NCBI GenBank assembly: GCA_043803225.1
Contig: JAZDKF010000012.1
Span: 54,143 to 118,142, forward strand
Reading direction: 5' to 3'
DNA: 64,000 nt
DNA from: Candidatus Beckwithbacteria bacterium
GTDB taxonomy: Bacteria > Patescibacteriota > Microgenomatia > UBA1400 > CG1-02-47-37
Shown here: one piece after another, positions 2,395 to 52,501 of the stretch
How positions within the stretch are numbered: position 1 is the stretch's first letter
Layout: every line of letters begins with the position of its first letter
Notes under the pieces: generated by a model
What the model was told of the DNA's origin: nothing
Databases searched by the model: none
Seen by the model: only the letters and a program-made list of their open reading frames with translations
Made by a program: the position numbers and the translations under genes

Positions 2395-3144
2395 TTATTT
2401 CCCCTGTCCGGCTTTCAACCCTACATAAAAATCCACCAGCGCCTGCGCAAATTGTTGTAGGCCTTCTGGAGAGGTTATAGAAATTGTATTGAACTTTCTA
2501 ATCTCTTTTCTACCACCATGGCGCCCCCACGTTAGTGGATTTATGCTTTTTTCAAAAGCTGGGGCTTTGGCACACTGTTGTTGGGTCAGTTGTAATAAAC
2601 CAGAATCATCAAAAACTACCCCCAACACATCACGCACCATCCTCGGACCCACATTGGCAATTTCCCTTTCTTCATTAAATTTCATGATTGTGGAAAACCC
2701 CCTCCCCGACACCCACCTCTCTACCCTCTCTATCTTTGTGTGACTTTTCCCGGTGGCTTCAAGTTGCACCCTTGCCTTATAGGTCAAAGCGTAGGCAATT
2801 TTACCATTTTTGGGCCCATAAGATCTCACTTGCCTCATTGGGGCAACTTTGTCTCTTAAAACTTCTAAATATTGTTTAATTGGAAACTGTGAAGCTAGTT
2901 GAAAAACTTCTTCATTTTTTTTCTTGTCTTTCCACCATTTAGTTTCTTCCACCGATTCTTTAATTCCCTTTGCAATTCCTTCAACTACCTGCCTCGGGGT
3001 TGCTCGCTTAATTCCTTCCCAAAATTCTGTTCTTTCTTTTTGTCGTCTTGATTTCTCTGCCATTATTTCATCTTGCTTGATTTGACGCCTAAAAGAGTCT
3101 CCTTCTTCCAATTGTTTCCGAAATTCTTCTACGTTTGACATCAA
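2395..3144 (-). CDS. hypothetical protein (249 aa), charged/coiled N-terminus
   Basis: Long ORF directly downstream of dnaN on the same strand. No recognisable motifs. Confidence 0.5.
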   Translation of the reverse strand: MMSNVEEFRKQLEEGDSFRRQIKQDEIMAEKSRRQKERTEFWEGIKRATPRQVVEGIAKGIKESVEETKWWKDKKKNEEVFQLASQFPIKQYLEVLRDKVAPMRQVRSYGPKNGKIAYALTYKARVQLEATGKSHTKIERVERWVSGRGFSTIMKFNEEREIANVGPRMVRDVLGVVFDDSGLLQLTQQQCAKAPAFEKSINPLTWGRHGGRKEIRKFNTISITSPEGLQQFAQALVDFYVGLKAGQGK

Positions 3145-3173: not shown

Positions 3174-4301
3174 CTACTCCTGCACGCGAACCGGCATGAT
3201 AATCTGAATTAAGCTCGCATCGCCCTTGGGTTTAAACACCCCCGGCGACAGCGGCCCGGAAATTTCCATCACTATCTGCTCGCTTTGCACCACATTCAGC
3301 ATTTCCAGCAAATACCGGCTGTTAAAGGCAATCTCTGCTTCCTCGCCGGTTTTCTTGCCGGAAACTTCAACTTCGTTTTCCCCTACTTGCGGCGCATTAG
3401 CCGAAATCACTAAACCTTTCTCGTTAATTTTAAACCTGACAATATTAGCGCTGTCTTTGGCAAACACTGCCGCTGCCCTGACTGCTTGTAATAGTTCTTC
3501 TGTTTCCAGCTCCACTGTGGTCGTGTGGCTTGTCGGAATTATCTTATCAAAATCCGGAAACTCTCCCTCTAAAAGTCTCGTTACCACTTCCACTTCTCCA
3601 TAAGCCATAATTAGTTGCCTCTCTTCGTCCGTGGCCGCCAAAGTAATTTCTTTTCCCTCGGCTTCTGAGGCATTTAAAGCCCTGACTAATTCCATTAACG
3701 CCTTGGCTGGAACCACCATCTCCTTGGCCTTCTTTACCCCTTTTAAACTGACTGTCTTCACCCCCAGCCGGTAACCGTCTGTCGCCGCCAATCTTAAAAT
3801 CTTTTCTTTCATTTCCAGTTTTACTCCGGTAAAAATCGGCCTGGATTCGTCCGTTGCCGCCGCCATCGCTATCTGGTTGATGCTTTCCTCAATCATTTCT
3901 TTGTCCAGTTGAATGGTTTCTTTGGCTGTTTTCCCGTCTCTAAACGAAGGCACTGCCGGAAACTCTTCTGCTCCGATTCCGTTTAATTTTGACTTAAACT
4001 TGCCGCAGCTGATCTTCAAACCCTCTCCCTCTTTTTCCAACACCACTGTTCCCGCCGGCAGCGATGCCACCGCCTCGCTTAAAATTCTCGCTGGTATGGT
4101 AATCTTCCCCTCGCCTTCTACCTTGCCGCCCAACCATAAATTCATGCCTGTTTCTAAGTTTGTCGCTGATAATTTTAACTTGCCGTTGTCTGTAGCCAAA
4201 AGAATATTAGCCAGCACCGGCAACTGGGTCTTATTTGCCACTACCCGGCTGACTAAATTAATTCCTTTGATTAAATTCTCTTGCAGTAAAGAAATTTTCA
4301 T
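3174..4301 (-). CDS. dnaN: DNA polymerase III beta sliding clamp
   Basis: 375 aa, three-domain clamp-like sequence ('MKISLLQENLIKGINLVSRVV...LPVLANILL'). Immediately downstream of dnaA. Confidence 0.9.
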   Translation of the reverse strand: MKISLLQENLIKGINLVSRVVANKTQLPVLANILLATDNGKLKLSATNLETGMNLWLGGKVEGEGKITIPARILSEAVASLPAGTVVLEKEGEGLKISCGKFKSKLNGIGAEEFPAVPSFRDGKTAKETIQLDKEMIEESINQIAMAAATDESRPIFTGVKLEMKEKILRLAATDGYRLGVKTVSLKGVKKAKEMVVPAKALMELVRALNASEAEGKEITLAATDEERQLIMAYGEVEVVTRLLEGEFPDFDKIIPTSHTTTVELETEELLQAVRAAAVFAKDSANIVRFKINEKGLVISANAPQVGENEVEVSGKKTGEEAEIAFNSRYLLEMLNVVQSEQIVMEISGPLSPGVFKPKGDASLIQIIMPVRVQE

Positions 4302-4489
4302 TTATCCCCCTTTTGTTTGTTAACTAACGGTTTAATTAGTAGTAGTTTTAGTAGGCGTTGTTGATAAGTGCATTATACAAGAATTTTTGTCTGTTTTCTT
4401 CTCTAAATATTCGCGTGCACAACCCCGAGGCGCTCTGTGGACAGACTTGTTGATAACTTGTGGATAATAACTTAACTTGTGGATAACTT
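4302..4489. promoter_or_regulatory. oriC segment (dnaA-dnaN intergenic): DnaA-box cluster plus AT-rich stretch
   Basis: Perfect TTATCCACA (as TGTGGATAA) at 4459-4467 and 4478-4486. One-mismatch boxes TGTTGATAA at 4448-4456 and ~4357-4365. A degenerate box CTGTCCACA (as TGTGGACAG) at ~4434-4442. AT-rich 'ttaattagtagtagttttag' at ~4331-4350 as a possible unwinding element. Confidence 0.7.
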
Positions 4490-5905
4490 CTATTTTTTCC
4501 CACTTTGATCCTCCAGTTGTCCACCGCCTTGGTAAATTATCTGCCTGATTCTGGTCATATCTAGTCTTAATTGTTCTGATTCTGCCAGCAATCTGGAAAT
4601 CTTATCCTCGCCGTGCATAATTGTCGTGTGGTCTCTGCCCCCCAGTACCTCCCCCGCCCCATCCAGGGAAAGCTGGAGCTCTCTTCGCAGTAAATACATT
4701 GCTATTTGTCTGGCGTTAACCAGCGATTTAATCCTCCGCACCCCCTTTAGCTCTTGGGGTTTAAGTTGGAAATAGTCGGCGACGCAATTTAAAATCTGTT
4801 TGGGTGTTGGCTTCTTGCCTCCGCTTCGCACCTCGCCATTAATTTTATTTAAAAGCGCCATCACCAACTCCTCGGTTAATGGTTCTTTTCTGGTCTCCTG
4901 CTCGGCCTTAAGCCGCATTAAAACCCCTTCAAGCTTTCTGGTTGATTCCACATTGGCGGCAATTGCCTGAGCCACCCTCATCGGTAAATCCACTCCCTTT
5001 TGCTGGGCTTTAATCAGCAGAATTGCTGTTCGCAGTTCAAATCCCGGCTTTTGTATATCCACTGTCATTCCGCCTTCAAACCTTGATTTTAATCGGTCTT
5101 CCAAGCCCTTAATTTCTGCTGGCAGTCTGTCTGAGGTTAACACAATTTGGCCGCCTTCTTTGTGGACAGCGTTGAAAGTATGGAAAAACTCTTCCTGAAC
5201 CGCTTCCTTGCCGGCAATAAACTGGACATCATCCAAAAGCAGCGCCCGCGCCCGCCGGTACTTTTGCCTAAACTGGGGTGTGGTTTTATTCCTGATTGCT
5301 TCAATTATTTCATTGGTAAACTCCTCGCCGGTACAGTAAACCAGCGCCCGGTCCGGATTTTTCTTTAAAATTTCATGCCCGACCGCCTGCATTAAATGAG
5401 TTTTTCCCACCCCCACCCCGCCGTAAATGAAAATTAAATGATAAACTTCGCCTGGCTTTTTTGCCGCGGTTTTTGCCGCCGCGTGCGCCACCTCATTGCT
5501 GGTTGAAACCGCAAAGTTGTCAAACGTCATTCCCGGAGTCAAACCCACTCGGCTCATTACCCGCTCATAAGCTTCGTCGGCAATCTTGGCGGTGTCAACC
5601 GAAAATAAATCATCTCTCGCCCCTTCTTTTTTTCTTTCTTCTTTGGCCTCAATCTGCAGCTTGATCTCGCACTTGTTTTTTAAATGCTTTTCCCCTAAAG
5701 TTTGAATTTGGCCTAAATATCTTTCAGCCACCTGGTTTTTATGGAATACTGACGGACAGCTTAAGCCCAAAACATAGCCTTGATTGTTTTTATCTAAACT
5801 AACGCTTTTTATCGGACTGATCCAAGTAGCAAAGTTTCCCGGCGACACTGACAATTCCATTTCTGCTAAAATTGACGACCAAAGAAAATTTCTGTCCATT
5901 CTCAA
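4490..5905 (-). CDS. dnaA: chromosomal replication initiator DnaA
   Basis: 471 aa. AAA+ Walker A 'GGVGVGKTHL', DnaA box-binding C-terminal domain, divergent from rpmH. Confidence 0.95.
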   Translation of the reverse strand: MRMDRNFLWSSILAEMELSVSPGNFATWISPIKSVSLDKNNQGYVLGLSCPSVFHKNQVAERYLGQIQTLGEKHLKNKCEIKLQIEAKEERKKEGARDDLFSVDTAKIADEAYERVMSRVGLTPGMTFDNFAVSTSNEVAHAAAKTAAKKPGEVYHLIFIYGGVGVGKTHLMQAVGHEILKKNPDRALVYCTGEEFTNEIIEAIRNKTTPQFRQKYRRARALLLDDVQFIAGKEAVQEEFFHTFNAVHKEGGQIVLTSDRLPAEIKGLEDRLKSRFEGGMTVDIQKPGFELRTAILLIKAQQKGVDLPMRVAQAIAANVESTRKLEGVLMRLKAEQETRKEPLTEELVMALLNKINGEVRSGGKKPTPKQILNCVADYFQLKPQELKGVRRIKSLVNARQIAMYLLRRELQLSLDGAGEVLGGRDHTTIMHGEDKISRLLAESEQLRLDMTRIRQIIYQGGGQLEDQSGKK

Positions 5906-8224: not shown

Positions 8225-8446
8225 GCTCTTTTTCTTTCACTATCGGACTTAAGCATAATCTAGTTTTACGCCTGTTAATTATTCATGTTAAAAAGTACTA
8301 ACGAAATATAATAAGTTTACTCAAGAAGATTTATTCATCGATTAGTCTGTTAACTCCTTAAATAGAAAATGTTAATACTTATTAAATAATATTCTAGGCC
8401 TTTTTTATTCCAGTAATAATTCCCGCTATTTTCCGCAAGCCCCAGC

Positions 8447-11400
8447 TTGCCGTTGAGACAAATATCCGCTAACATGAATACAATGCCCATCAAAGTTAAA
8501 TCAAAATCTAAAGTTAAAACCCATTCTCAGATTTCCCGCCAGCTGCCCTCGGCCTTGGTCGCCGGAGCCGCCGGTTTTATTGGCTCCCATCTTTGTGAGA
8601 CCCTTCTCTCTCAAAACTGCCAAGTCTATGCTATTGATAACTGGACCACGGCTAAGAAAAAAAACCTTGAGGCATTAATGGATAACGATCACTTTATTTT
8701 TATCGAACACAACCTGGAAAAATCCTTTGATGCCCCTGTTCCTAAAGTTGACTATATTTTTCACCTAGCCGGAGTCGAAGCTTATGTTAATGGTTTAGAT
8801 GTTAGTCTGGAAACCCTTTTAGTCAACTCACTTGGTACCAAAGAACTGTTGGAAATTGCTAAAGATCAGGGGGCAAAATTTCTGCTGGCCTCAACTGCTG
8901 ATATTTATTCCGGCCATCTCGCTTCAATCCAAAAAGACGAAACCTACTCGCATTATGAAGCCAAACGTTTTTCTGAAGCCATCACTTTTGAATATCTGGA
9001 TCGCTATCACCTTAATTCTCGGGTTGTCAGGCTCGGACTGGTTTACGGCCCGAGAATGGACTTGAGTTCAGGCAACGACATGGCTCAGTTGTTGCAGGCC
9101 GCCGCCAACAATCAACCATTAAAAATTTACGGCCAAGGCTTAACCACTCTTTACCCCACCCATATTAATGATGTTGTCTATGGCTTAACCAAAGCCATGT
9201 TTTCTCAAAGTTCCTCCGGTCACATTTATACCCTTATCGATCCGGAAAAAATTACCCTTTTAAACCTGGCTTATAAATTAAAGCAGCTTTTACCGGAAAA
9301 AAACTTAAAAGTCGAATTCGTCCCCGACTCTGATTCTGAAACCAATCTGGCTCTTGAATCAACCGCTTTAAGCTCTCAAACTGAACTGGGTTGGTCGCCA
9401 AAAGTTACCTTAGACCAAGGAATTTTATCCACCCTTAATTGGTTGAAAAACGGCAAAGTGCCAACCAAAACTAAACCAGAACCAGAAGCAACTGTTCCCG
9501 AACCAATTTATACTCCGGAAGAATTGGGGATTCAGCCTGCCAAAGCTCCGGAAATCTCGCTTCCGGTTGCTTCCCAACCCAAACTCAAACTTCTCAAATT
9601 TAAACTTAATCTGCCTAAATTTCCTAAATTCTCTTTGCCCAAGCCCAAGCTTTCTTTAAGACCAAGAAAACCCCAGCTGACCAAAAAAACAAAATTAATC
9701 CTTTTGAGCGCGGGCTTGTTATTTTTATATCTGCTTGCTCCTATAGTTTTACTCGTTTTTTCTTCTCTTGCCGGTGTTAAGCAGTTAAAAAGCCTTAGTC
9801 GTCAAATTGACTTTTCTCAAGTTGACCAACTCACTAAAACCACTGCCAAGGCTCAAAAAAACTTTACCTTAAGCCGTGAGTTACTGCGCCGCTCCCAATT
9901 TATATTATCTGTCTTTGGTTTAAAATCATTTAGTCAAAACCTTGACCAGTTATTATTTATTGCCAACAAGCTCAGCCAGGGCGCCGGTTATTTATTTTCC
10001 GCCGGCCAGTCGGGAACTGTCCTATCGCAAATTGTCTTTCACAATCAAGAGGGGAATCTGTCGCAGGCCTTAAAAGAAACTCGCCTTAGTCTGGACCAAG
10101 CCTACACCAACTTGTCTTTTGTTGATTCTGAGCTTCAGTCCGGCCGCGAACGCCAGTTGGACTTAACCGTCTCTCTGACCAAACAGCTGCAAAACTTAAC
10201 TGACAATCTCCCCCAAATCAGGCACAAAATTAATCAGGCGCGGACTCTTTTGCCCCTGATTCCCGGGTTTATTGCCCAGGATACTAAAAAAACCTATCTG
10301 GTTTTATTTCAAAATTCCGCCGAACTGCGCCCCACCGGCGGATTTATTGGCTCTTACGGCCTGCTGACCTTTGAAAAAGGCAAGCTTCTGGACTTTAACG
10401 TTCAGGATATCTATGAAGCCGACGGTCAGCTTAAAGGCTTTGTTGAACCCCCAAAGCCGATCACCCAGTTTTTTGGGAAAAACACCTGGTACTTTCGCGA
10501 TTCCAACTGGGATCCTGACTTTACTATCTCTGCCGCCCGCGCCGAATGGTTTTTGGGTAAAACCACCAATCGCAATGTTGATGGCGTTATTGCCATTAAT
10601 CTTCCGGCGGTTAAAGAATTATTGGCCGCCACCGGTCCGATTACTTTATCTGACTACAATGAAGAGGTGAGTAGTGACAATATTTTTGAACGCGCCGAGT
10701 ATCACTCAGAAATCGATTTTTTTCCCGGTTCTACCCAGAAAAAAGACTTTCTCGGCGCTCTGGCCAGGGAAATGTTTGACCGGCTGCAAAAATCATCAGC
10801 CTCAGATCTATTGAAACTGGCTCAAGCCCTGGAAACCTCGCTCAGCCAAAAACAAATTCTTCTTTACCTTCATGACACCGACAGTCAAAGACTGCTTTTA
10901 GAACAAAACTGGGCCGGCGCTCTTTACGCTCCACGCTTAGCCGCTGCCGACAACCGGCCGGTCACCAGCGACTATTCTTATCTGGTTGAAGCCAATTTAG
11001 GAATTAATAAAGCCAACTACTTTTTAAAACGGGAAATAGAACAGCAGTTAACTCTGCTTAAAAATCGGGAAATTTTATCCGTTACCACTATAAACTATCA
11101 GAACCAGAGCCCGGCCGACGCTTGGCCGGGTGGGGTTTACCGCTCCTATCTTCGCCACTATATCCCTTCAAACTCCATCCCTATCTCAGTCAAAGTTGGC
11201 GACACCAAGCTTGACCTTAAATCAGTTGACCAGACCATTATTAACGACAAGCTAATCTTGGGTTTTCCCATAACTGTTCCGGTCAAAAACTCGCTTTCAG
11301 TGGAAATTACTTACCGATTAAACCAGGCATTAAGCCTCACCGACCGTCAGGGCCGTTTAGCCGTGGTTATTCCCAAACAGCCTGGAACCATTGCCGATCT

Positions 11401-11542
11401 TTTAAAAGTAATTGTTAACTACCCCAGTTACTTATCAGTTGTCGCCGTATCTTCTCAGGGAATTGTTTCCCCTCAAGTCGTTACCCTTCAAACCGACTTA
11501 AGCCAGGACCGTCTTTTTACCATTGATTTTGTTGAACGCTGA
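8447..11542 (+). CDS. fusion protein: N-terminal NAD-dependent epimerase/dehydratase (extended SDR) - Pro/Lys-rich linker - TM helix - C-terminal DUF4012-like domain
   Basis: 1031 aa. Rossmann 'VAGAAGFIGSHLCETL' and 'LASTADIYSG'. Linker 'KPEPEATVPEP...LPKFPKFSLPKPKLSL'. TM 'LILLSAGLLFLYLLAPIVLLVF'. C-terminal block with 'ELRPTGGFIGSYG' typical of DUF4012. Confidence 0.7.
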   Translation: MPLRQISANMNTMPIKVKSKSKVKTHSQISRQLPSALVAGAAGFIGSHLCETLLSQNCQVYAIDNWTTAKKKNLEALMDNDHFIFIEHNLEKSFDAPVPKVDYIFHLAGVEAYVNGLDVSLETLLVNSLGTKELLEIAKDQGAKFLLASTADIYSGHLASIQKDETYSHYEAKRFSEAITFEYLDRYHLNSRVVRLGLVYGPRMDLSSGNDMAQLLQAAANNQPLKIYGQGLTTLYPTHINDVVYGLTKAMFSQSSSGHIYTLIDPEKITLLNLAYKLKQLLPEKNLKVEFVPDSDSETNLALESTALSSQTELGWSPKVTLDQGILSTLNWLKNGKVPTKTKPEPEATVPEPIYTPEELGIQPAKAPEISLPVASQPKLKLLKFKLNLPKFPKFSLPKPKLSLRPRKPQLTKKTKLILLSAGLLFLYLLAPIVLLVFSSLAGVKQLKSLSRQIDFSQVDQLTKTTAKAQKNFTLSRELLRRSQFILSVFGLKSFSQNLDQLLFIANKLSQGAGYLFSAGQSGTVLSQIVFHNQEGNLSQALKETRLSLDQAYTNLSFVDSELQSGRERQLDLTVSLTKQLQNLTDNLPQIRHKINQARTLLPLIPGFIAQDTKKTYLVLFQNSAELRPTGGFIGSYGLLTFEKGKLLDFNVQDIYEADGQLKGFVEPPKPITQFFGKNTWYFRDSNWDPDFTISAARAEWFLGKTTNRNVDGVIAINLPAVKELLAATGPITLSDYNEEVSSDNIFERAEYHSEIDFFPGSTQKKDFLGALAREMFDRLQKSSASDLLKLAQALETSLSQKQILLYLHDTDSQRLLLEQNWAGALYAPRLAAADNRPVTSDYSYLVEANLGINKANYFLKREIEQQLTLLKNREILSVTTINYQNQSPADAWPGGVYRSYLRHYIPSNSIPISVKVGDTKLDLKSVDQTIINDKLILGFPITVPVKNSLSVEITYRLNQALSLTDRQGRLAVVIPKQPGTIADLLKVIVNYPSYLSVVAVSSQGIVSPQVVTLQTDLSQDRLFTIDFVER

Positions 11543-47871: not shown

Positions 47872-48906
47872 ATGCTTTCCGCCGTTAAACGCCGTTTCTA
47901 TAAATATCTTCTGCCTTTTCGCCCGTTAATCTATCTGGCAGTTATCGGTCTGGTCTGCTTAATTTTAGTTTTAATCATTCCTAAACTGGCCGCTTCTTTT
48001 AAAAAAATTATTCAACTTTCTACGATTACCCGGCTTGACTCTTTCCGCAATCGGACCAATATTCTGCTTCTTGGCGCCAGTGGCGGAACTCACCCCGGAG
48101 CTGATTTAACTGACAGCATCATGTTAATTTCAGTTAATCTTTCTACCTCAGATACGGTCTTAATTTCTCTGCCTCGGGACATTTGGGTTGAATCTTTATC
48201 TGCCAAACTTAATACTGCCTATCATTTTGGCGAAACCAAGCAGCCCGGCGGCGGCCTGATTATGGCTAAAGCCGCGGTTGCCGAAATCATCAACCAGCCG
48301 GTCCATTATGCTGCACTCTTGGATTTTTCCGGTTTTGAAACCGCCATCGACGTCCTTGGTGGTTTGGATCTGAATGTGCCCCATGGCTTTATCGACGCCA
48401 AGTATCCGCTTCCTGGCCAGGAAAATGCTCCCGATGAAACCGCCCGCTATGAAATCCTGCAGTTTCATTCTGGCTTTCAACACTTTGACGGTTCCATGGC
48501 CTTAAAATATGTTCGTTCCCGCCAGTCAGAAGGTGAAGAAGGGACTGATTTTGCCCGCAGCCAGCGTCAGCAATTGGTTTTGTTGAGTTTTAAAGATAAA
48601 GTTTTGTCTCTAAAAACTTTGCTTAATCCGTTTAAACTTAAAGCCCTCTATCAAGCTTTTAAAGCCGCTGTTACCACCGATCTTGAACCAAAAATCTATC
48701 CGGATTTAGTTAAGCTGGTTTTTAAAATTAAACCTGATTCGCTTCGTACAGGCATCATTGACCAGGGCAGTGACAACGAAGAAATTCCCGCCTTGCTCTA
48801 CAACCCGCCGGCCGAACAATACGGCCAATGGGTTTTATTGCCGCTTAATAACAACTGGCAGGCTGTTTATGATTACCTTGAAGAAATTATCTACCAAAAT
48901 CAATAG
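47872..48906 (+). CDS. LytR-CpsA-Psr (LCP) family cell-wall glycopolymer transferase
   Basis: N-terminal TM. 'ILLLGASGG...DSIMLISVN...ISLPRDIWV' LCP core. Confidence 0.8.
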   Translation: MLSAVKRRFYKYLLPFRPLIYLAVIGLVCLILVLIIPKLAASFKKIIQLSTITRLDSFRNRTNILLLGASGGTHPGADLTDSIMLISVNLSTSDTVLISLPRDIWVESLSAKLNTAYHFGETKQPGGGLIMAKAAVAEIINQPVHYAALLDFSGFETAIDVLGGLDLNVPHGFIDAKYPLPGQENAPDETARYEILQFHSGFQHFDGSMALKYVRSRQSEGEEGTDFARSQRQQLVLLSFKDKVLSLKTLLNPFKLKALYQAFKAAVTTDLEPKIYPDLVKLVFKIKPDSLRTGIIDQGSDNEEIPALLYNPPAEQYGQWVLLPLNNNWQAVYDYLEEIIYQNQ

Positions 48907-50122
48907 GCCAATACTAGTTCTAACCACTGTATTAGTTATATCGATTCTCTACTGGCAAGCACTTAATCCCTTATGGCGCGGCCATTTAGAAATTGATGTT
49001 TGGAGTTGGTTTCTGCGAATGGAATATTTTTTTAAACACAACTCTTTTACAGGTCTAGACGGCAATGAAATTCTTCCCACGACGCTTATTTATATTTTTA
49101 TCCCTCGCTTGTTAGCTGGCTGGAAAAATCTTTCTTATATTTCTTATCTTTCAGCTGCGACGTTAGTTAATTTATTGGTAATTTTTCTCACCCTCGTTGT
49201 AGTGAAAAAGAAATCATCTTCACTTCAATCTTGGCTATTTTTAATCTTAGTCTTAGCCATTGGCCCAATCCTTCTTTTTCGCTTTGACACAATCGTCGCC
49301 CTCTTCGTCCTTTTAAGCCTATATTTGTTTTCAAAAAAAAGAATAATCTCATCTGCTATTTTCTTAAGTTTGGCCACCTCCATGAAAATATATCCGATTA
49401 TTTTATTACCCTACCTGGGATTAATTCTTATGTATCAAAAAAGTTTTAAACGCATTTTAATTTACTTATTTTATTTTCTCCTATTTATGGCCTTGCCGAT
49501 AATAATATTTTTCCTTCTCGGTGGAAATCTTAAGCAAATTTTATCTGCTATGGAATTTCACGGTCTTAAATATGTTAGTATCGAAAGTCTGCCGGGAAGT
49601 TTATTAACCGCCTCTTCGCTGATTTTTAACCATCGCCCTCCAGATTTATTAGGGGGTTATGGAATTTGGGGAATTACTACGCCGCTGATTAAAACTCTTG
49701 GTCTAAAAGTTTTTAATTATTTTTGGGTTTTACCAGTTAGTTTTTTTTATCTCTTTATCATCAAAAACAGAAAATATCTAGCTAAACTTTATCCTTCAGT
49801 TTGTTTCTCATTGGTTTTATTCTTTCTAGTCTTTTCTAAAAATCTACACCCTCAATACATTTGGTGGTTTCTATCCATTTTTCCCTTTATTAAAATTACT
49901 GCCTTCAACCGCTATAAATATTTATTTATGTTTATTTTGTTGGTATTTATCAGTATTTTCAACCAATTAGTTTATCCGTTGTTTTACACTCAGTTTATAG
50001 ACGATTTTTTCCAGCATAATCGTTACTATGAAGTTTTTTACGCCCTTTTAATTAGAAACTTTTTAATTGTTTGTCTATTAATAGTTAGTTTGAAAAATGA
50101 ATTTCCTAAAAAAACACTTTAA
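48869..50122 (+). CDS. polytopic membrane protein, GT-C-like (DUF2029/GT87-like) glycosyltransferase, putative
   Basis: At least 10 TM helices, low-GC. Start uncertain (the track ORF begins at 48758 inside the LCP gene; 48869 ATG chosen). Confidence 0.45.
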   Translation: MITLKKLSTKINRPILVLTTVLVISILYWQALNPLWRGHLEIDVWSWFLRMEYFFKHNSFTGLDGNEILPTTLIYIFIPRLLAGWKNLSYISYLSAATLVNLLVIFLTLVVVKKKSSSLQSWLFLILVLAIGPILLFRFDTIVALFVLLSLYLFSKKRIISSAIFLSLATSMKIYPIILLPYLGLILMYQKSFKRILIYLFYFLLFMALPIIIFFLLGGNLKQILSAMEFHGLKYVSIESLPGSLLTASSLIFNHRPPDLLGGYGIWGITTPLIKTLGLKVFNYFWVLPVSFFYLFIIKNRKYLAKLYPSVCFSLVLFFLVFSKNLHPQYIWWFLSIFPFIKITAFNRYKYLFMFILLVFISIFNQLVYPLFYTQFIDDFFQHNRYYEVFYALLIRNFLIVCLLIVSLKNEFPKKTL

Positions 50123-51332
50123 TTTAAAAACACTAATTCTTTTAGTGTTTATTTTACGATCAGCGCTTTCTTTGTTGCCGCCAATGGCCATCGATCAAAG
50201 TTGTTGGCGTGCCTGGAGCCAAAGACTGGTTGACTTAGGCCCCGCCGAATTTTATTCAGAAACTGTGTTTACCGCTAACCCTCCTGGCTTTCTTTATGTT
50301 TTTTGGCTGCTGGGAGAAATTAAAAATAGTTTATTCCCTCAAATATCTTTTTCTTCTTCCGGCTATGACTGGTTCCTTAAACTGCCCAATAATCTGGCCG
50401 ATATTGCTGCCGGGGTGCTTATTTACCTGTTAATTAAGACAAAAAGGGGAATCGGCATAGCCAAACTTGGGTTTCTTCTTTACACCCTAAATCCAATAAC
50501 TTGGTTTAACTCATCAGTTTATGGCCAATTTGATGGCTCAGCTGCATTTTTTGGTTTACTCGCAGTGTACTTATTATTAACTAAGCGAAAACTATCCTTG
50601 TCTGCTGCTGTTTTCGCCCTCGCCTGGGCCATAAAACCGCAATTGATTGCTTTGGCTCCGGCTTTGGGATTATTAGCTATCTTTCGCTTTAAGCCAATTG
50701 ATTGGTTTAAAGCCGCCTTAGCCTTTATATCAACCACCTTAATAATCTACTGGCCGTTTTTCCCCGGAAATCCTGTTAAGGGGATAATCTCTGTTTTTCA
50801 GCAAATGGCCAACCTTTACTCTTGCGCTTCCTGTTTTACTTTTAATTTCTGGGGTCTTTGGGGCAATTGGTTCCCCGATACCACTGTATTGCTTGGTCTA
50901 TCGTTTATGTCTTGGGGGATTATTCTTGTCGGCTTGAATCTGATTGTTGTCTTGTTGCTTAAACCGCTTAAACTTCGCTATCGTTTACCCTATCTTTACC
51001 TTACTATTGCGATCTCAATTTTATCCTTTAATATGTTGGTTACCCGAATGCACGAGCGTTATGTTTTTCCCTTTTTTGCCTTTTTCCTTTTAGCTGCCAT
51101 TCTCATGAAATCAAGACTGTTATTTGTTTTTTATCTGATTTTTTCTATTTTTAATACCTTTAATGTTTACTATCCTTACTCTTATTACAATCCGGATTTT
51201 CACTTAACCCCGGCTTTAATTAACTGGCTTAATCAAAACTTTCAGTTGCTGTCCGTAATTGGCTTAGCTATTTATTTGATATTATTAACTCACTTTTTAA
51301 TTACTTTAAAAAGATTAAGAAAAAAATCATGA
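50097..51332 (+). CDS. polytopic membrane protein, GT-C-like glycosyltransferase, putative
   Basis: 411 aa, at least 10 TM helices. Same operon, overlapping starts and stops. Confidence 0.45.
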   Translation: MNFLKKHFNLKTLILLVFILRSALSLLPPMAIDQSCWRAWSQRLVDLGPAEFYSETVFTANPPGFLYVFWLLGEIKNSLFPQISFSSSGYDWFLKLPNNLADIAAGVLIYLLIKTKRGIGIAKLGFLLYTLNPITWFNSSVYGQFDGSAAFFGLLAVYLLLTKRKLSLSAAVFALAWAIKPQLIALAPALGLLAIFRFKPIDWFKAALAFISTTLIIYWPFFPGNPVKGIISVFQQMANLYSCASCFTFNFWGLWGNWFPDTTVLLGLSFMSWGIILVGLNLIVVLLLKPLKLRYRLPYLYLTIAISILSFNMLVTRMHERYVFPFFAFFLLAAILMKSRLLFVFYLIFSIFNTFNVYYPYSYYNPDFHLTPALINWLNQNFQLLSVIGLAIYLILLTHFLITLKRLRKKS

Positions 51333-52501
51333 AACAAAATCACCTTAAACTGCTGTTTCTTCTCTTTATTATTTCTATTTTCTTCCGCACTTTTCGTCTT
51401 TCACAGCCAAAGGCCTATGTTTTTGACGAGGTTTATCATACTTTTACCGCCCAGGAAATGGCCAAAGGGAACCAGCATGCCTGGGAATGGTGGGTTCCTT
51501 CACCGCCTGGGGTAGCTTATGAATGGACTCATCCGCCTTTAGCTAAACTGGCCATGGCCGGATCAATCAGCTTATTGGGTGATCGTAGTTTTGCCTGGCG
51601 TTTTCCCAGTGCGGTTTTCGGCACCTTATCAGTTGCCGTAGTTTATTTTATTGGTAAACAATTATTTAAAAACAATCATCTCGCTCTTTTAGCCGCCGCG
51701 ATTTTTAGTTTTGACGGCCTGCAATTAACTATGTCTCGAGTCGGCATGGCCGACAGCCTTTTAACCCTATTAATGCTTCTGGCCTGTTTATTTTTTTATC
51801 AGTCAAAATTCCGCTTAACCGGAATTTTTCTGGGATTAGCTTTAGCCACCAAATGGTCAGCTGTTTTGCTGTATCCGGTCTTTGGTATCTTATTATTGCC
51901 TAAAATAATTAAAAATACCCAGAAAGTTAAGTTTTTCTTCCAGCTGGCTTATAGCTTTTTGCTTACGCCTTTAGTAATTTATTTTTTAACCTTTATTCCT
52001 TTTTTTAATACCGGACATACTTTAGCTCAGTGGTGGGAACTGCAAAGACAAATGTATTATTATCACTCCCACTTAAACGCCACTCATCAGTACCAATCAA
52101 TGGCTTGGCAGTGGCCGCTTCTTGTCCGGCCGGTTTGGTTTTATGTGGATTATGCGAAAAATTCAATTGCTAATATTTATAATCTCGGCAACCCGGCAAT
52201 TTTCTGGGGCGGGTTAGTCGCTTTATTTTTTAGCCGCAATTTTACTTTATTAATCTCTTACTTTCTCCTTTTTTTCCCTTTTGTCTTTTCTCCCCGGATT
52301 ATGTTTTTACACCACTATCTGCCTGCTTTGCCGTTTTTGTGTCTGATTATTGCCCAGGCAATTTATCAGCATAAATTACTGGCAAAGTATTACCTCCTAT
52401 TAGTTATCCTGTTATTTTTATTCTTCTATCCCCTTAATACTGCCATTTCTTTACCGGTGAATTTAGTTAAATATTGGTTTTGGCTGCCAACTTGGAAGTA
52501 A
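51329..52501 (+). CDS. protein O-mannosyltransferase-like GT39 (PMT family)
   Basis: First-loop 'YVFDEVYHTFTAQE' (DE motif of PMT/GT39). Polytopic. Confidence 0.7.
   Translation: MKQNHLKLLFLLFIISIFFRTFRLSQPKAYVFDEVYHTFTAQEMAKGNQHAWEWWVPSPPGVAYEWTHPPLAKLAMAGSISLLGDRSFAWRFPSAVFGTLSVAVVYFIGKQLFKNNHLALLAAAIFSFDGLQLTMSRVGMADSLLTLLMLLACLFFYQSKFRLTGIFLGLALATKWSAVLLYPVFGILLLPKIIKNTQKVKFFFQLAYSFLLTPLVIYFLTFIPFFNTGHTLAQWWELQRQMYYYHSHLNATHQYQSMAWQWPLLVRPVWFYVDYAKNSIANIYNLGNPAIFWGGLVALFFSRNFTLLISYFLLFFPFVFSPRIMFLHHYLPALPFLCLIIAQAIYQHKLLAKYYLLLVILLFLFFYPLNTAISLPVNLVKYWFWLPTWK

Follow-up and report, generated by a model that had tools for sequence, protein, structure and literature searches.

The gene at positions 8447 to 11542 of the window, a 64,000-nucleotide stretch of a Candidatus Beckwithbacteria genome (contig JAZDKF010000012.1), encodes a single protein with one domain on each side of the membrane. 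The N-terminal domain resembles the extended short-chain dehydrogenases/reductases (SDRs), and the C-terminal ectodomain carries DUF4012. Our favored reading, held with moderate confidence, is a bitopic envelope protein in which a glycopolymer-handling module resembling the LytR-CpsA-Psr (LCP) proteins is tethered to a non-canonical, probably non-catalytic SDR domain that binds nucleotides. It builds on the predicted fold of the ectodomain core, the loss of catalytic residues from the SDR domain, and the conservation of the gene across Microgenomates, a group of ultra-small bacteria within the Patescibacteria.

The frame 8447..11542 (+) is uninterrupted and gives 1031 aa if counted from TTG 8447; residue numbers follow this open reading frame (ORF) throughout. 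An identical protein (P0001, 100%) from a metagenome-assembled genome named ‘Candidatus Beckwithbacteria’ has an NCBI model of 1019 aa that begins at ATG 8483. TTG 8447 is probably not the true start, because it overlaps the −35-like hexamer of a conserved promoter-like block, and ATG 8483 is the likelier start. A further ATG at 8474 is conserved, but in orthologs it either lies out of frame or has a stop codon after it. The parts of the gene are as follows.

8483..11542, + strand: coding sequence, 1019 aa (maximal ORF from TTG 8447; P0001 100% identical)
8543..9448, + strand: cytoplasmic extended-SDR-like domain, UXS-like, aa 33-334 (Pfam, PDB match 2b69)
8564..8584, + strand: Rossmann glycine motif GAAGFIG, aa 40-46 (read from the sequence)
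8951..8965, + strand: degenerate active-site motif HYEAK, aa 169-173 (L-INS-i alignment)
9449..9694, + strand: Pro/Lys/Leu-rich basic linker, aa 335-416 (composition)
9695..9775, + strand: single transmembrane (TM) helix, aa 417-443, N-in/C-out (hydropathy, flanking charges)
9776..10270, + strand: extracytoplasmic helical bundle, aa 444-608
10271..10939, + strand: DUF4012 core with predicted LCP fold, aa 609-831 (PF13196 spans nt 10283-10690)
10952..11539, + strand: C-terminal beta-sandwich region, aa 836-1031 (AlphaFold2 model, all-beta from model residue 408 onward)

Two Pfam domains are present, Epimerase (PF01370) at aa 36-261 (E 5e-30, 105.1 bits vs a cut-off of 20.9) and DUF4012 (PF13196) at aa 613-748 (6.5e-30, 105 bits vs a cut-off of 28). 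The sole hydrophobic segment before the ectodomain is LILLSAGLLFLYLLAPIVLLVFSSLAG, the 27 residues of aa 417-443, with a Kyte-Doolittle 19-residue mean of 2.6. The 25 aa on its N-terminal side include nine Lys/Arg and no acidic residue, and by the positive-inside rule these flanking charges put the SDR domain on the cytoplasmic side and the last ~590 aa of the protein outside. The linker (aa ~338-416), with 19 Leu, 17 Pro, and 15 Lys in 95 residues, has a median identity to orthologs of 5%. Of the 238 relatives of at least 750 aa, 224 have exactly one TM-type hydropathy peak on the N-terminal side of the DUF4012 core. A first-pass annotation of the window had described this order, a cytoplasmic SDR-like domain followed by a Pro/Lys-rich linker, one TM helix, and a large DUF4012-like outside domain, and the Pfam and topology signals agree with it, down to the profile match with DUF4012.

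The extracytoplasmic core and its predicted fold

A sequence search of the ectodomain against the PDB gives no match. The AlphaFold2 (AF2) model of the ectodomain, built with 76 homologs, has a pLDDT of 91.2 and a pTM of 0.88 and divides into three parts: model residues 1-177 form a helical bundle, 178-400 the alpha/beta core that holds DUF4012, and 405-600 an all-beta C-terminal region. In a Foldseek search of the PDB with the whole ectodomain, generic beta-sandwich matches dominate and no LCP proteins are listed, so that a model of the isolated core was needed. The two AF2 models are independent, and the second has a pLDDT of 85.6. The structures listed for the LCP fold are Lin1025, Staphylococcus aureus LcpA with C40-PP-GlcNAc, BrpA, gbs0355, A. 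oris LcpA, Cps2A, 3pe5, MsrR, 4obm, TagU, and TagT. The C-terminal beta region matches ITIH1, ribophorin I, the N-domains of M1 aminopeptidases, and 4g2a in the PDB, with E of 2.5e-6 to 1e-4. As modeled, the DUF4012 core has the LCP fold, a relation of fold that carries no claim of LCP family membership, and the only matches of this predicted fold are the enzymes responsible for attaching sugar polymers to the cell wall. The first-pass annotation had called the outside domain one of unknown function, which holds for its Pfam name but no longer for the fold of its core.

No other part of the protein is nearly as conserved as the core. The 19 diverse sequences aligned for it all match PF13196, and Q622, E626, R628, G631, G632, P668, P669, W681, R684, D685, N687, D712, G713, and K765 are invariant among them; R628, G631, G632, P669, D685, N687, and G713 are still invariant in an alignment of 76 sequences. 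The core lies outside the membrane, C-terminal of the single TM helix, and an extracytoplasmic catalytic domain behind an N-terminal TM segment is the organization of LCP proteins (PMC7831098). Catalysis in those proteins depends on arginines (R267, R362, and R374 of Cps2A) together with Asp/Gln around a bound pyrophosphate, Mg2+, and the mouth of the polyprenyl tunnel (PMC7831098). On the strength of the modeled fold, the DUF4012 module probably acts on LCP-like substrates.

Several results weigh against this assignment. PF03816, the canonical LCP family, appears in none of the 19 core sequences in a Pfam scan at E<=10, and a profile search of the PDB with the core returns no LCP chain at E<=10. 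Aligned by hhalign with 120 LCP homologs, the core is colinear over 173 columns at a probability of 0.5%; including the comparison with the window's own LCP protein, the probabilities are 0.5-0.7%, which is non-significant. The LCP arginine set (R267/R362/R374 of Cps2A) is not recognizable in the DUF4012 sequences. In addition, the same genome encodes a canonical LCP protein (47872-48903), so that the DUF4012 protein is not simply ‘the’ LCP.

The ectodomain might accordingly be a non-catalytic scaffold or regulator that reuses the LCP fold for binding only, as a co-polymerase-like partner of Wzy_C/Wzx in chain-length control or export or as a wall-binding spacer. The arginine signature that sequence comparison fails to detect, the long helical stalk and the beta-sandwich that flank the core, the canonical LCP protein of the same genome, and the position of the Bifidobacterium DUF4012 gene next to wzz (PMC5412050) are all compatible with such a role. 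We consider it unlikely. Eight of the invariant residues are charged or polar (Q622, E626, R628, R684, D685, N687, D712, and K765) and hold across sequences 39-53% identical to the window protein; with the invariant Gly, Pro, and Trp they look more like an active or ligand site, and the strong conservation of the core relative to the rest of the protein points the same way.

The cytoplasmic SDR-like domain

The closest PDB match of the N-domain is human UDP-glucuronate decarboxylase (UXS1, 2b69), with E=5.7e-39 and 31% identity over 291 aligned residues, and the domain also matches Pfam GDP_Man_Dehyd at 5e-26. In a scan of NCBIfam it reaches no equivalog cut-off; the best model scores 84.5 bits vs 365, and the UXS-type model PRK11908 scores 24 bits vs a cut-off of 294. 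The columns of the domain were read from an L-INS-i alignment of 188 N-domains of the fusion with human UXS1, and an alignment-free count of motifs gives the same picture.

The dinucleotide-binding features are largely retained. The three glycines of GxxGxxG are kept in 167, 148, and 178 of the 188 sequences, and the Asp that contacts the NAD ribose (in YAIDNW of the window protein) in 151. The catalytic Lys151 column is kept in 138 and the Ser/Thr column in 143, and the window protein has both the Thr of ASTxD and the Lys. What is absent is the triad in YxxxK spacing. Four residues before the Lys, in the column of the catalytic Tyr147, the family has H in 98 sequences, a gap in 27, F in 20, L in 15, Q in 7, S in 4, and Y in 3. 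Two further determinants of UXS activity have changed as well: Glu120 (of STSE) is replaced by Asp, Asn, or Gln in the family, by Asp in the window protein, and 150 of 188 sequences have a gap in place of Arg277, a column with no Arg among its commonest residues.

In the window protein the motif reads SHYEAKR (aa 168-174), which puts Tyr three residues and His four residues before the Lys. The first-pass annotation took this for a catalytic motif shortened to YxxK. Alignment with UXS does show that an intact YxxxK is missing and that the Lys is retained, and YxxK is literally there; its Tyr is nevertheless not the catalytic one moved by a residue. L-INS-i aligns the His with Tyr147 of human UXS1, and in HMMER the Tyr can be placed on the human Tyr only with a one-residue gap. 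Most relatives read SHHEAK (consensus SHHEAKRF), and the position three residues before the Lys is mostly H, with Tyr in only 3 of 188, the window protein included. As the family has no conserved Tyr anywhere at the motif, the alignment identifies the window Tyr as an idiosyncratic His-to-Tyr change and not as a displaced catalytic residue. The window protein also lacks a segment of ~10 aa just before the motif (aa ~150-168, nt 8900-8950; consensus DLTHYFGSxx) that nearly all homologs have, and five homologs (P0002, P0005, P0041, P0048, and P0049) carry deletions of their own in the same loop region.

Conservation of the domain differs with phylogenetic distance. Within Beckwithbacteria, the SDR region shares 59-68% identity with that of five orthologs, at a nonsynonymous divergence (dN) of 0.26-0.33 and saturated synonymous divergence (dS), values that resemble those of the beta-sandwich region. 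Such purifying selection indicates that the SDR domain is still functional within Beckwithbacteria. Over 78 syntenic orthologs, the median identity to the window protein falls from 46% in the DUF4012 core to 28% in the beta-sandwich and 15% in the SDR domain, which makes the SDR the least conserved folded part across the class. Orthologs of the Gottesman- and Woesebacteria type have a shrunken cytoplasmic part, with the TM helix at residue ~170-350. A Pfam scan of these shrunken parts gives no match, and what they retain are weak Rossmann-like remnants with broken glycine motifs. In the sister clades where the SDR domain decays, the ectodomain core remains 38-79% identical. One orthologous gene thus presents a series from a UXS-like but Tyr-less domain to a degenerate remnant, with the ectodomain held constant, as one would expect if the domain were a pseudoenzyme or binding module accessory to the ectodomain.

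The same observations have to be weighed against an active enzyme. The domain could be a non-canonical nucleotide-sugar epimerase or 4-oxidoreductase in which Lys173 works together with His169 or Tyr170 as the base, and which is tethered to the membrane to couple precursor supply to assembly outside. The presence of GAAGFIG, the NAD Asp, the Thr of ASTxD, and the Lys would fit such an enzyme, as would the strong conservation of SHHEAKRFSE in the Beckwith clade, a dN/dS well below 1, and the match to human UXS1. Moreover, some SDR relatives of the PCBER/PLR type work with Lys and without Tyr. On the other side stand the absence of the catalytic Tyr from 185 of 188 relatives, with a varying residue (H, F, L, or Q) in its place, the loss of the UXS Glu and Arg, the deletions in the substrate loop of the window protein and several others, the wide distance from every NCBIfam equivalog threshold (84.5 vs 365 bits for the best), and the orthologs in the same chromosomal slot that retain the ectodomain and have no recognizable SDR features. 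We regard an active SDR as unlikely. The domain is probably a non-canonical, non-catalytic nucleotide-binding module, as the residue pattern suggests, with catalysis in the Beckwith clade still conceivable. The idea that it is a binding or scaffold module, put forward in the first-pass annotation from the motif, is therefore plausible: the lost Tyr, Glu, and Arg and the decay in sister clades speak for it, the purifying selection seen here speaks against a dead domain, and Lys-only catalysis is still conceivable.

Conservation, synteny, and genomic surroundings

A search of 5.8 billion proteins finds at least 114 full-length homologs (900-1100 aa) with identity down to 32%, all with both Pfam domains. 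The homologs stem from independent NCBI, JGI, ENA, and Logan assemblies, and more than 100 have the same uninterrupted architecture. A HMMER search with the ectodomain yields 11,063 representatives at 50% clustering, 3,793 of them with E<=1e-30; the best 150 of the 11,063 are mostly 800-1100 aa long with the domain C-terminal. Of the 138 new ones among these 150, 107 share the SDR-like N-domain. When one genome per species is scanned, at least 598 genomes give a match, and the best 80 of these all belong to Microgenomates (Beckwith-, Gottesman-, Woese-, Shapiro-, Davies-, Levy-, and Curtissbacteria).

The gene occupies a near-universal slot in the order (dnaN-dnaA), rnpA-yidD-yidC-jag, rnhA, the fusion gene, rplY (L25), a TPR gene, and valS. 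Because the slot is the same in nearly every locus, the fusion gene is an orthologous, origin-proximal, lineage-wide core gene of Microgenomates and not a gene of a polysaccharide island. The first-pass annotation had the outside domain as usually a stand-alone protein of polysaccharide loci; such proteins do occur near polysaccharide genes in other phyla (a 616-aa protein in Rhodococcus, a 621-aa protein in E. eligens), but in its own lineage fusion is the rule.

A sequencing or assembly frameshift that joined two neighboring genes, or a miscalled ORF, would give the appearance of a fusion. That explanation has a negligible chance of being right. The architecture recurs uninterrupted in more than 100 independent assemblies, and among 78 syntenic loci of different species 55 have it, with the linker and TM helix in all these relatives. 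No evidence for an artefact was found, and the sole adjustment to the gene is the start codon (ATG 8483 vs TTG 8447). The split into two genes by frameshift correction, which had been named as a test of the fusion, is not borne out, since at least 114 homologs share both domains, and the two-gene reading is rejected on the architecture kept across full-length homologs and syntenic orthologs.

The names of some source records are at odds with this distribution. Records for L006, L007, L009, L010, and many other related loci are titled ‘uncultured Gammaproteobacteria’ or ‘Pseudomonadales’ (TPA_asm) despite Microgenomates-type synteny, and the homolog P0094 is named ‘Candidatus Bathyarchaeia archaeon’ although its contig carries bacterial dnaA, dnaN, yidC, and a penicillin-binding protein (PBP) gene. 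The Gammaproteobacteria, Pseudomonadales, and Bathyarchaeia names appear to be taxonomic mislabels.

Wzy_C-like and Wzx-like genes lie just upstream of the fusion gene in many relatives. Between jag and rnhA, 1-4 kb upstream and on the same strand, a Wzy_C-family gene (O-antigen-ligase/polymerase-like) lies in 56 of 85 related loci, and a Wzx-type flippase gene has the same position and strand in 38 of 85. Examples are the following.

L003 4653-7300 and L005 6153-7454: Wzy_C-like/Wzx-like membrane protein genes between jag and rnhA

The stand-alone DUF4012 gene of Rhodococcus has O-antigen-ligase-family, glycosyltransferase, acyltransferase, and MATE genes within ~5 kb. In Bifidobacterium longum, the DUF4012 gene lies between a priming glycosyltransferase gene and wzz in an exopolysaccharide (EPS) locus (PMC5412050), and Meheust et al. 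place DUF4012 among the families shared by or enriched in the candidate phyla radiation (CPR) and Gram-positive-type bacteria (PMC6744442). Together, the Wzy_C/Wzx neighbors, the Rhodococcus and Bifidobacterium loci, and the CPR/Gram-positive distribution point to assembly of a lipid-linked glycopolymer at the outer face of the membrane. Two absences count against this context for the window protein itself: Wzy_C and Wzx are missing from the slot in the Beckwithbacteria clade, window included, and none was found among 50 other window ORFs scanned, a set without the eight that run from dnaN/dnaA as far as the TPR gene.

Upstream of the fusion gene, the gap of 222 bp (8225-8446) has 29.7% GC vs 42.5% for the window, and orthologous loci have gaps of 119-305 bp at the same place. 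Two features are distinguished here.

8225..8482, no strand: AT-rich intergenic region, rnhA to fusion gene (GC 29.7-31% vs 42.5% for the window)
8413..8479, + strand: conserved non-coding block common to the window, L001, L002, L006, and L007 (synonymous sites saturated)

The block contains a hairpin (GCAAGC 8435-8440 / GCTTGC 8445-8450) and has sigma-70-like geometry, with TTGCCG at 8447-8452, a 17-nt spacer, and TAACAT at 8470-8475. Its distance to the start codon differs between genomes, with a ~120-nt insertion in L006, and for this reason it is taken as non-coding. An Rfam search of the upstream region gives no match at E<=1, which leaves a riboswitch or leader RNA without support, and a simple promoter scan of the region returns two weak matches, no more than shuffled sequences give. 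From its conservation across genomes we infer that the block is a promoter. The predicted transcription start would then fall at or beside ATG 8483 and give a leaderless mRNA or one with a very short leader; most of the AT-rich gap would be untranscribed spacer, and TTG 8447 would be part of the −35 element. The first-pass annotation was right on the length and AT-richness of this 222-bp stretch; as a leader it fares less well, being intergenic with a promoter-like element at its 3' end and probably for the most part not transcribed. A second shared block is present at ~8281-8310 (TTCATGTTAAAAAGTACTAACGAAATAT).

Downstream, the rplY (L25) ORF as listed begins at TTG 11523 and overlaps the final 20 nt of the fusion gene. 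The called L25 genes of L001-L005 start 20-165 nt past the stop codon of the fusion gene, and by comparison the L25 start of the window is probably also downstream of that stop.

Farther along, the window has a second envelope locus (47872-52498), made up as follows.

47872-48903: canonical LCP gene (PF03816, 1.1e-27)
48758-50119 and 50097-51329: two ORFs without a Pfam match
51329-52498: PMT/ArnT-like glycosyltransferase

The ORF 48758-50119, which has an RxDT motif, was considered as the LCP gene of the window and rejected; it has no PDB or Pfam match, and the true one is 47872-48903.

The replication origin is expected near dnaA/dnaN (3174-5905). Nearly every 2-kb bin of the window (1-64000) has a negative GC skew (−0.1 to −0.3), and the sign does not change around these genes. 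Next to dnaN, related loci (L001 1-2444, L002 295-2791, and L004 1-1198) encode P-loop ATPases, TraC-like ones and ones of the VirB4/TraG type (DUF87, AAA_10). At the corresponding position of the window, the minus-strand ORFs 126-1100, 1093-2331, and 2395-3144 have no Pfam match.

Proposed role and comparison with known systems

Architecture, topology signals, motif loss, predicted fold, synteny, and the pattern of conservation are observations; what is proposed here concerns ligand, acceptor, catalysis, and any coupling across the membrane. At the outer face of the membrane, the LCP-like module would bind a glycan linked to polyprenyl-(pyro)phosphate that is exported or assembled by a Wzx/Wzy_C-type pathway. 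It may then transfer the glycan to an acceptor on the wall or surface, or cleave or hold the lipid-linked intermediate. Handling of the glycan would involve the invariant polar set R628, R684, K765, E626, D685, D712, Q622, and N687, and the helical stalk and beta-sandwich would position the module relative to the wall. On the cytoplasmic side, the Tyr-less SDR would bind a dinucleotide or nucleotide-sugar as a docking or regulatory pseudoenzyme and would not convert sugar nucleotides.

The comparison with LCP phosphotransferases (S. aureus LcpA 6uex, S. pneumoniae Cps2A 2xxp, and B. subtilis TagT/TagU/TagV) shows both likeness and difference. They share an extracytoplasmic domain after an N-terminal TM helix, DUF4012 genes are likewise associated with genes for glycopolymer export or assembly, and Cps2A has an accessory domain between TM helix and core that the helical bundle recalls. 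In contrast to LCP proteins, the core has only 6-14% sequence identity to them and no significant PF03816 profile match, and the Arg/Asp signature is unrecognizable; DUF4012 has invariant motifs of its own (ELRPTGGFIGS, RDSNW, VDG, and GSTQKK). The fusion protein also has the helical stalk and the C-terminal beta-sandwich, and a large cytoplasmic SDR-like domain where LCP proteins have a short tail.

Actinomycetota and Bacillota have stand-alone DUF4012 proteins (among them Bifidobacterium longum BL105A_0406, Rhodococcus WP_052959829, and Lachnospira eligens WP_012740572) with an ectodomain of the same family behind an N-terminal TM helix; tblastn aligns more than 90% of the core at 23-27% identity. 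Their neighbors are polysaccharide genes, including O-antigen-ligase-family, glycosyltransferase, flippase, or wzz genes (PMC5412050). They differ from the fusion in their length of ~576-621 aa, in having no SDR domain, and in their location, which is accessory EPS or capsular polysaccharide (CPS) loci or plasmids and not a block of housekeeping genes near the origin.

The SDR domain shares GxxGxxG, the NAD Asp, NxxGT, ASTxx, and the Lys with UXS (human UXS1, 2b69) and the related extended SDRs ArnA (C-domain), RmlB, and GalE. It departs from UXS in the change of Tyr to His and Glu120 to Asp, the missing Arg277, and the ~10-aa deletion in the substrate loop. Human UXS1 has an N-terminal TM anchor with the enzyme in the lumen, unlike the fusion, whose SDR is cytoplasmic and N-terminal of the TM helix. 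Atypical, non-catalytic proteins of the SDR fold, such as NmrA and HSCARG/NMRAL1, sense or bind dinucleotides through the Rossmann fold and are soluble, unfused to envelope domains. By analogy only, the fusion resembles NmrA and HSCARG in a retained nucleotide-binding motif, a lost catalytic Tyr, and a proposed regulatory role.

A more far-reaching version of the proposal is that DUF4012 forms a second, unrecognized branch of the LCP superfamily and that in Microgenomates the Tyr-less, UXS-derived SDR senses cytoplasmic NAD(H) or UDP-sugar levels and thereby gates glycopolymer attachment outside. This is a speculative idea that we consider quite improbable. If true, the protein would be a cell-wall ligase that metabolites control from the inside out, in bacteria about whose envelope biogenesis almost nothing is known.

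The fusion is already public and unstudied, annotated as ‘DUF4012 domain-containing protein’ or ‘NAD-dependent epimerase/dehydratase family protein’, and both halves are of known kinds. The searchable literature names DUF4012 in only three papers, none of them functional, and has no mention of PF13196 or IPR025101, nor were an LCP fold for DUF4012, a family-wide loss of the SDR Tyr, or a decay series in a Microgenomates core gene found there. With parts that are known in kind, the finding is useful rather than startling. The gene offers a natural series of pseudoenzyme evolution within one syntenic orthologous gene, from UXS-like through Tyr-less but conserved to a Rossmann remnant. The LCP fold, in turn, gives the large DUF4012 family a functional handle and a testable hypothesis, that of binding or transferring a polyprenyl-PP-glycan. 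Since the protein is conserved across the sampled Microgenomates, this hypothesis bears on the envelopes of CPR bacteria, the assembly of which is essentially uncharacterized.

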